From Escherichia coli (GTDB lineage Bacteria; Pseudomonadota; Gammaproteobacteria; Enterobacterales; Enterobacteriaceae), in NCBI RefSeq assembly GCF_003334305.1, contig NZ_QOWS01000013.1: a DNA stretch of 64,000 nucleotides. The stretch is one strand, 5' to 3'. A model generated the notes under the pieces. That model was not told the origin of the DNA. It searched no databases and saw only the letters and a list, made by a program, of their open reading frames with translations. The position numbers and the translations under genes are program-made. Each line of letters begins with the position of its first letter. Position 1 is the first letter of the stretch. This document shows positions 32,389 to 34,278 of this stretch, one piece after another.

Positions 32389-34278
32389 ATGGCTGAATTC
32401 GAAACCACTTTTGCAGATCTGGGCCTGAAGGCTCCTATCCTTGAAGCCCTTAACGATCTGGGTTACGAAAAACCATCTCCAATTCAGGCAGAGTGTATTC
32501 CACATCTGCTGAATGGCCGCGACGTTCTGGGTATGGCCCAGACGGGGAGCGGAAAAACTGCAGCATTCTCTTTACCTCTGTTGCAGAATCTTGATCCTGA
32601 GCTGAAAGCACCACAGATTCTGGTGCTGGCACCGACCCGCGAACTGGCGGTACAGGTTGCTGAAGCAATGACGGATTTCTCTAAACACATGCGCGGCGTA
32701 AATGTGGTTGCTCTGTACGGCGGCCAGCGTTATGACGTGCAATTACGCGCCCTGCGTCAGGGGCCGCAGATCGTTGTCGGTACTCCGGGCCGTCTGCTGG
32801 ACCACCTGAAACGTGGCACTCTGGACCTCTCTAAACTGAGCGGTCTGGTTCTGGATGAAGCTGACGAAATGCTGCGCATGGGCTTCATCGAAGACGTTGA
32901 AACCATTATGGCGCAGATCCCGGAAGGTCATCAGACCGCTCTGTTCTCTGCAACCATGCCGGAAGCGATTCGTCGCATTACCCGCCGCTTTATGAAAGAG
33001 CCGCAGGAAGTGCGCATTCAGTCCAGCGTGACTACCCGTCCTGACATCAGCCAGAGCTACTGGACTGTCTGGGGTATGCGTAAAAACGAAGCACTGGTAC
33101 GTTTCCTGGAAGCGGAAGATTTTGATGCGGCGATTATCTTCGTTCGTACCAAAAATGCGACTCTGGAAGTGGCTGAAGCTCTTGAGCGTAACGGCTACAA
33201 CAGTGCCGCGCTGAACGGTGACATGAACCAGGCGCTGCGTGAGCAGACACTGGAACGCCTGAAAGATGGTCGTCTGGACATCCTGATTGCGACCGACGTT
33301 GCAGCCCGTGGCCTGGACGTTGAGCGTATCAGCCTGGTGGTTAACTACGATATCCCGATGGATTCTGAGTCTTACGTTCACCGTATCGGTCGTACCGGTC
33401 GTGCGGGTCGTGCTGGCCGCGCGCTGCTGTTCGTTGAGAACCGCGAGCGTCGTCTGCTGCGCAACATTGAACGTACTATGAAGCTGACTATTCCGGAAGT
33501 AGAACTGCCGAACGCAGAACTGCTGGGCAAACGCCGTCTGGAAAAATTCGCCGCTAAAGTACAGCAGCAGCTGGAAAGCAGCGATCTGGATCAATACCGC
33601 GCACTGCTGAGCAAAATTCAGCCGACTGCAGAAGGTGAAGAGCAGGATCTCGAAACTCTGGCTGCGGCACTGCTGAAAATGGCACAGGGTGAACGTACTC
33701 TGATTGTTCCGCCAGATGCGCCGATGCGTCCGAAACGTGAATTCCGTGACCGTGATGACCGTGGTCCGCGCGATCGTAACGACCGTGGCCCACGTGGCGA
33801 CCGTGAAGATCGTCCGCGTCGTGAACGTCGTGATGTTGGTGACATGCAGCTTTACCGCATTGAAGTGGGCCGCGATGATGGTGTTGAAGTTCGTCATATC
33901 GTTGGCGCGATTGCTAACGAAGGCGACATCAGCAGCCGTTACATCGGTAACATTAAGCTGTTTGCTTCTCACTCCACTATCGAACTGCCGAAAGGTATGC
34001 CGGGTGAAGTACTGCAACACTTTACGCGTACTCGCATTCTGAACAAGCCGATGAATATGCAGTTGCTGGGCGATGCGCAGCCGCATACTGGCGGTGAGCG
34101 TCGTGGCGGTGGTCGTGGTTTCGGTGGCGAGCGTCGTGAAGGCGGTCGTAACTTCAGCGGTGAACGCCGTGAAGGTGGTCGTGGTGATGGTCGTCGTTTT
34201 AGCGGCGAACGTCGTGAAGGCCGCGCACCGCGTCGTGATGACTCTACCGGTCGTCGTCGTTTCGGTGGCGATGCGTAA
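32389..34278 (+). CDS. deaD: Cold-shock DEAD-box RNA helicase DeaD (CsdA)
   Basis: [21 protein letters not shown], 629 aa; [15 protein letters not shown] and [10 protein letters not shown] motifs; RG-rich C-terminal tail; the ORF track adds 22 codons upstream. Confidence 0.95.

Follow-up and report, generated by a model that had tools for sequence, protein, structure and literature searches.

The cold-shock DEAD-box helicase DeaD, also known as CsdA, ends in a repetitive, Arg/Gly-rich and probably disordered C-terminal tail, the length of which varies in frame among a small part of the sequenced Escherichia coli genomes. We have analysed this tail in a 64,000-nt stretch of E. coli DNA (the window) and in a large set of complete genomes of the species. 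We consider it probable that the tail is a disordered RNA tether and module for multivalent interactions, that its DNA repeats are a by-product of the repeated peptide, and that its length changes in frame, by slippage or unequal exchange. The tail as such is already known: it belongs to the Pfam family DeaD_C, has been curated and named in a protein that is well studied, and its repetitive coding is to be expected; what is new here is a quantified census of its length alleles, as well as the point that the phase of the repeats guarantees in-frame products.

The deaD locus

The gene and the features around its 3' end in the window are as follows.

32389..34278, plus strand: deaD (csdA) coding sequence, 629 residues plus stop; the ATG start at 32389 lies inside the open reading frame (ORF) 32323..34278 (plus strand)
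33829..34080, plus strand: RNA-binding domain (RBD), residues 481-564, the final folded domain ahead of the tail; matched by PDB 5b88 chain A (E = 1.5e-50) and by Pfam DbpA at residues 489-558
34081..34275, plus strand: Arg/Gly-rich C-terminal tail, residues 565-629, predicted to be disordered from Pfam PF12343, composition and an AlphaFold2 model
34321..34352, plus strand: intrinsic terminator of deaD, with a 9-bp stem, a 7-nt loop and a T-run

The product matches the NCBIfam equivalog NF008642 with a score of 1395.5 bits (cutoff 989), residues 1-629 being aligned to positions 1-628 of the 628 in the profile. It has the architecture expected of DeaD, which in Pfam terms comprises DEAD (30-196), Helicase_C (232-340), the dimerization domain DeaD_dimer (374-443), the DbpA-type RBD (489-558) and the disordered tail DeaD_C (568-629). 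Structures of E. coli DeaD fragments have been solved for residues 6-210 (PDB 5gju), 218-445 (5gi4) and 481-564 (5b88). The gene order nlpI - deaD - mtr, typical of E. coli, is present in the window according to the ORF list and the RefSeq annotation of matching loci; in the RefSeq records of the matching genomes the same stretch is deaD, flanked by nlpI/yrbN and mtr. The 26-codon yrbN, annotated by RefSeq in a matching genome (positions 760-840 of L005) and equivalent to about 32316-32396 (plus strand) of the window, overlaps the start of deaD by 8 nt; therefore, the in-frame TTG at 32323 given by the ORF finder is unlikely to be the start of deaD.

Positions 33850-34420 of the window diverge by ~3.3% from K-12 (L003), nearly all the differences being synonymous or intergenic, and the terminator loop differs between the two (TTTGAACC versus TTTTTACC), the stem being unchanged. 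Only 363 of 5,426 genomes are at least 99% identical to the window over these positions, and the deaD haplotype of the window is therefore a minority one. A second low-complexity stretch is located at 33735-33831 (DeaD residues ~450-480), in the linker that joins the dimerization domain to the RBD; it shows weak 9-nt and 15-nt DNA periodicity, has CGTGA and CGTCG words in common with the tail, and varies in length among genera. In one genome the deaD tail is present a second time, complete and of standard length, on a replicon that carries a plasmid label; wrong assignment of the contig or transfer of a piece of the chromosome could account for this.

Limits, composition and predicted disorder of the tail

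The original prediction, made from the sequence of the window, described the last ~65 codons of deaD as a repetitive tail, and the matches to NF008642 and Pfam DeaD_C confirm this for residues 565-629; the peptide quoted there corresponds to residues 568-611 (window 34090-34221). PF12343 DeaD_C, described as 'DeaD helicase C-terminal disordered region', matches residues 568-629 over positions 1-62 of its 62 (E = 9.2e-12, 45.6 bits), in the place expected for the CsdA C-terminal extension, i.e. after the DbpA-type RBD, and in nothing does the tail of the window differ from this family. The construct of PDB 5b88 ends at residue 564, exactly where the tail starts, and none of the structures 5gju, 5gi4 and 5b88 includes residues 565-629.

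The 65 residues of the tail include 20 Gly, 19 Arg, 7 Glu, 4 Asp and 4 Phe. Gly and Arg together make up 60% of the tail and charged residues 46%, with a net charge of +8; 11 residues are acidic, and hydrophobic and aromatic residues together number only 6. In an AlphaFold2 model of the RBD and the tail, for which the input alignment consisted of 26 homologues, the RBD forms a beta-alpha-beta-beta-alpha-beta fold with block-mean pLDDT values of 63-80, and residues 563-629 are without secondary structure, with pLDDT values of 41-50. The model thus predicts that the tail is intrinsically disordered.

A repeated peptide in biased codons

The tail is composed of four degenerate [GS]GERR[EG]G...F units of 11, 11, 15 and 21 residues, the first three of which are delimited by Tandem Repeats Finder, by a repeat search and by the peptide.

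34090..34122, plus strand: repeat unit 1, 11 residues
34123..34155, plus strand: repeat unit 2, 11 residues
34156..34200, plus strand: repeat unit 3, 15 residues
34201..34263, plus strand: repeat unit 4, degenerate, 21 residues; GGDA and the stop codon come next (34264-34278)

A GERR core begins at each of 34091, 34124, 34157 and 34202, with spacings of 33, 33 and 45 nt, and the Phe residues are at positions 578, 589, 604 and 625. Tandem Repeats Finder detects a period of 33 nt over 34091-34185, with 2.9 copies, 72% matches and a score of 106. Self-matching at a lag of 33 nt is 0.494 versus 0.405 +/- 0.036 in codon shuffles, a level reached by 16 of 2000 shuffles; at a lag of 11 residues it is 0.37 versus 0.19, reached by 2 of 2000 shuffles, or by 82 of 2000 after correction for the best lag. 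The periodicity of the tail is real but modest.

At the DNA level, the longest exact repeat in the tail of the window is 13 nt, and 356 of 500 synonymous resamples (the same peptide in deaD codon usage) reach the observed length. The codons are strongly biased, CGT encoding 17 of the 19 Arg and GGT or GGC all of the 20 Gly. As the repeats are no longer than those in the resamples and the codons are biased, the DNA repeats are the footprint of a repeated peptide in biased codons, and much of the repetitiveness of the tail DNA is compositional. The claim that direct DNA repeats encode the tail is thus correct in that repeated units are present, but these are degenerate and are better called a protein-level repeat in strongly biased codons; each of the two DNA units quoted as examples is found a single time (34093 and 34159, respectively). 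There are 13 pairs of exact repeats of at least 8 nt in the tail, and the spacing of every pair is a multiple of 3.

Length alleles among E. coli genomes

The deaD tail region was found in all of the 5,426 complete E. coli genomes sampled. The alleles were counted by an uninterrupted-alignment (contiguity) test with strict E-value limits; bands of megablast coverage and identity are unreliable for deletions here, since only 6 genomes fall below 80% coverage, yet 21 carry a deletion of 78 nt. The standard tail of 65 residues is encoded by 5,176 genomes (95.4%). The other ~4.6% carry in-frame length alleles, so the suggestion that repeat copy number may vary between strains is borne out, albeit at low frequency, and the comparison of DeaD C-terminal lengths across genomes that had been proposed as a check finds a tail that is not invariant.

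The alleles encode tails of 21, 39, 65, 69, 70 and 75 residues. The +12 nt allele (L001), which adds REGG, was found in 166-187 of the 5,426 genomes (about 3%). At least two tandem copies of the 15-nt unit TGGCGGTGAGCGTCG (GGERR x2) are present in 50 genomes, and many of the +15 nt genomes bear ST361 names; at least three copies are present in at least two genomes, and the one inspected, A1.S1.160, encodes GGERR x3. The -78 nt allele (21 genomes) has lost 26 residues, leaving a 39-residue tail, and the -132 nt allele, found in two genomes (the FXCREC pair), has lost 44, leaving a tail of 21. These classes total 239-260 genomes versus 250 with a non-standard tail, which leaves room for other alleles in ~11 genomes at most. 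The sites in the window at which the alleles arise are listed below.

34089..34111, plus strand: the 15-nt unit TGGCGGTGAGCGTCG and then a second TGGCGGTG; an 8-nt word is repeated here (34089, 34104), and the +15 and +30 nt alleles (L004, L006) originate at this site
34132..34143, plus strand: copy 1 of the 12-nt exact repeat CGTCGTGAAGGC, with copy 2 at 34210-34221, 78 nt apart; the +12 nt allele arises here too
34098..34105, plus strand: copy 1 of GCGTCGTG, with copy 2 at 34230-34237; end points of the -132 nt allele

The CGTCGTGAAGGC repeat is 12 nt long in the window and 18 nt in the K-12-type allele, and the -78 nt allele (L005/L010) fuses its two copies. The +12, +15, +30, -78 and -132 nt alleles all have their end points on direct repeats of 5-18 nt, and all are in frame because the exact repeat pairs are spaced by multiples of three. 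Gain or loss of a single 33-nt unit was not seen among the alleles found in the 5,426 genomes; the changes are either gains of a 12- or 15-nt sub-unit or losses of 78 or 132 nt that remove multiple units.

At least two SNP backgrounds carry the -78 nt allele, with an identical 603-residue product (WP_005001325.1). These backgrounds differ at two sites in the 75 nt that follow the junction downstream (GCA...GGC in one, GCT...GGT in the other); the deletion could have arisen independently more than once at the 18-nt repeat, or recombination could have taken place. The variants look lineage-bound, comprising the ST361-named strains (+15 nt), the FXCREC pair (-132 nt) and, for part of the -78 nt class, four derivatives of one isolate. 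This isolate, EC0026B, comes from a study of nitrofurantoin heteroresistance (PMC10569738), and all four derivatives carry the -78 nt allele; we see no reason to tie the allele to that selection. Our literature search found no published report of length variation in the deaD tail, which is not proof that none exists.

Conservation of the tail peptide

The tail of the window represents the commonest E. coli length allele, and it differs from that of K-12 by 5 synonymous and 0 non-synonymous codons, the corresponding numbers for the preceding 176 codons being 18 and 1. Within the species, the conservation of the tail peptide is therefore similar to that of the folded domains, although length alleles are tolerated. 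In Enterobacterales-type homologues from outside E. coli, the complete tails are of 38-89 residues, with 1-6 ERR motifs; those of the Klebsiella type have one additional 10-residue unit and a doubled APRRDD. A 17-residue tail motif and a terminal ...RRR(FG(G))DA end recur across Enterobacterales genera. The protein search with the RBD and the tail that yielded these homologues returned mostly gene fragments, and was used for the comparison of tails and not as a taxonomic census.

Proposed role of the tail

Disordered Arg/Gly-rich repeats with interspersed aromatic residues are also found in the eukaryotic RGG/RG motifs, e.g. in FUS, hnRNPs, LAF-1, DDX4 and the tails of Ded1/DDX3 and Dbp2, and some of these, like the DeaD tail, belong to an RNA helicase; a shared role in condensation and in nonspecific binding of RNA is plausible. 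The tri/di-RGG and tri/di-RG classes were reportedly defined by Thandapani in 2013 as at least two RGG or three RG, 0-4 residues apart. The DeaD tail, although similar in composition, falls outside this definition, as it has one RGG (at residue 572), three RG and one di-RG (RGGGRG), and neither a di-RGG nor a tri-RG. Unlike the RGG/RG motifs, it repeats the word GERR(E/G)GGR, which includes acidic residues, and is of mixed charge; its 11 acidic residues and single RGG triplet argue against a typical basic RGG box. The arginine methylation that regulates eukaryotic RGG/RG motifs is not expected in E. coli.

Parallels are also offered by other helicases. According to PMC3590231, the C-terminal tails of Mss116p and CYT-19 are, like that of DeaD, unstructured basic extensions past the helicase core, and are thought to tether the enzyme to RNA; the same source describes the C-terminal extension of CsdA as locally very basic and as a candidate seat of its ATP-independent annealing. 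The disordered C-terminal extensions of RhlE1 and RhlE2 tune RNA binding and phase separation (PMC11260450). DeaD differs from all of these in having a dimerization domain and a folded RBD ahead of the tail. It has also been shown that CsdA needs long single-stranded extensions, for which a secondary nonspecific RNA-binding site was proposed (PMC1616957), and that purified DeaD phase-separates in a salt-dependent manner and marks condensates in cells, the responsible region being unmapped in that study (PMC12758526). In the accessible papers we found no experiment on the 65 residues in isolation.

Judging from its composition and from these other helicases, the tail, a mixed-charge, net-basic chain, would be flexible and would serve as a sequence-nonspecific electrostatic tether for RNA and as a multivalent interaction module, auxiliary to the adjacent RBD. 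The regularly spaced Phe and the many Arg residues would be the contact points. In this way the tail may help strand annealing, and may add to the salt-sensitive condensation reported for DeaD.

On the other hand, the main task of the tail, and especially of its end RRRFGGDA, might be to dock one particular partner (RNase E, poly(A) polymerase and the pre-50S particle would be examples) and not to tether RNA in general. Between genera, no other part of the tail is as well conserved as the terminal motif, and all the E. coli length alleles, even the -132 nt one, retain the conserved 11-residue C-terminal end; furthermore, in vitro binding of CsdA to RNase E and to poly(A) polymerase has been reported (PMC1616957). 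However, no partner has been mapped to the tail in the accessible papers, and the composition fits nonspecific binding to polyanions equally well, so that we regard a docking motif as unlikely.

It also seems unlikely to us that the tail is functionally neutral, low-complexity filler of drifting length, as might be suggested by its wide range of lengths across genera, by the clinical isolates that lack 26 or 44 of its residues, and by a tail-less construct (core, dimerization domain and RBD) that is active in ATPase and unwinding assays, as reported in PMC11850223, citing Xu 2017. Against drift stand the absence of any amino-acid change relative to K-12 despite the 5 synonymous differences, the predominance of the standard length, and the recurrence across genera of the motifs and the terminal end, which is sufficient for a Pfam family. 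The tail is nevertheless not essential, as clinical isolates carry the two shortened alleles; most of the repeat array is dispensable for viability, and its contribution may therefore be small or conditional, e.g. upon low temperature.

Origin of the repeats and of the length alleles

The DNA repeats would thus be a by-product of the repeated peptide in CGT, GGT/GGC and GAA codons, with no function as DNA. As all of them stand in the same codon phase, their misalignment would produce in-frame gains and losses only, and the positions of the end points suggest that the length alleles arise by replication slippage or unequal exchange. Such in-phase misalignment would lead both to the rare, tolerated length alleles of E. 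coli and to the differing numbers of units between genera. Slippage indels at microhomologies or short direct repeats are known from bacterial genes, and the five non-standard deaD alleles likewise end on short direct repeats. Classical phase-variable repeats, in contrast, shift the reading frame, whereas the deaD repeat pairs are in codon phase and the products are in frame and keep the conserved end.

A hypermutable contingency locus, with DNA repeats whose purpose is to supply DeaD with frequent changes open to selection, is in our view a very improbable reading of the tail. Length alleles do exist, genomes differ in having one, two or three copies of the 15-nt unit, and the -78 nt allele, which sits on no fewer than two SNP backgrounds, may have recurred. 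However, contingency loci have long perfect tandem repeats that shift the frame or the promoter spacing, whereas the deaD repeats match at 72% and contain exact words of at most 13 nt in the window and 18 nt in K-12; a single length accounts for 95.4% of the genomes, the variants look lineage-bound, and changes that are all in frame provide no on/off switch. With its degenerate in-phase repeats and one dominant length, the deaD tail is very probably not a contingency locus.

Open reading frames across the tail

Across the 195 nt of the tail, the frames +1, -0 and -1 have no stop codon, and +2 and -2 have 10 and 3, respectively. Three non-coding frames being free of stops, spurious ORFs result.

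33969..34406, minus strand: spurious ORF, 145 residues, Pro/Arg/Ser-rich, crossing the deaD terminator and the tail
34073..34288, plus strand: spurious ORF, 71 residues, Val-rich, in the +1 frame of the tail

The low-complexity tail had been expected to yield spurious ORFs on the opposite strand; one was found there, and non-genic ORFs are in fact present on both strands. Although these frames are open for 145 and 71 codons, almost certainly neither is a real gene, as their openness is explained by the CGT/GGT/GAA codon composition, their products are of low complexity, the antisense ORF passes through the deaD terminator, and neither is annotated in any of the 7 RefSeq records inspected.

A further antisense ORF, 32743..34086 (minus strand, 447 residues), spans most of deaD in codon phase and ends at the last TTA of the gene (codon 119); it is an artefact of codon usage, because deaD is without CTA or TCA codons. 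Database proteins of 85-98 residues (P0098-P0119) have PF12343 as their sole match and looked like candidate stand-alone tail proteins. The one cluster examined, P0104, with three contigs, turned out to be the 3' part of deaD, split into two overlapping gene calls by a frameshift or poor assembly: among these metagenomic contigs, L007 (1373-3267) has a 1-nt deletion, L008 and L009 have a split mtr, and L009 contains runs of N. Many other database fragments run into the +1 frame of the tail and have Val-rich endings.

Implications

Those who annotate the deaD tail or call variants in it should be prepared for spurious ORFs, for gene calls that are split and for in-frame indels. For studies of DeaD condensates and of helicase tails, the natural alleles provide ready-made constructs with identical flanks. 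That the tail-length alleles (GGERR x2/x3 in the ST361-type clinical lineage, -78 nt and +12 nt) are adaptive, rather than neutral products of slippage, appears to us quite doubtful; if it were true, altered RNA tethering or an altered condensation threshold of DeaD could change cold growth, ribosome assembly or persistence, and the alleles would form a series with which to test how the number of repeats sets condensate behaviour in a bacterial disordered tail.
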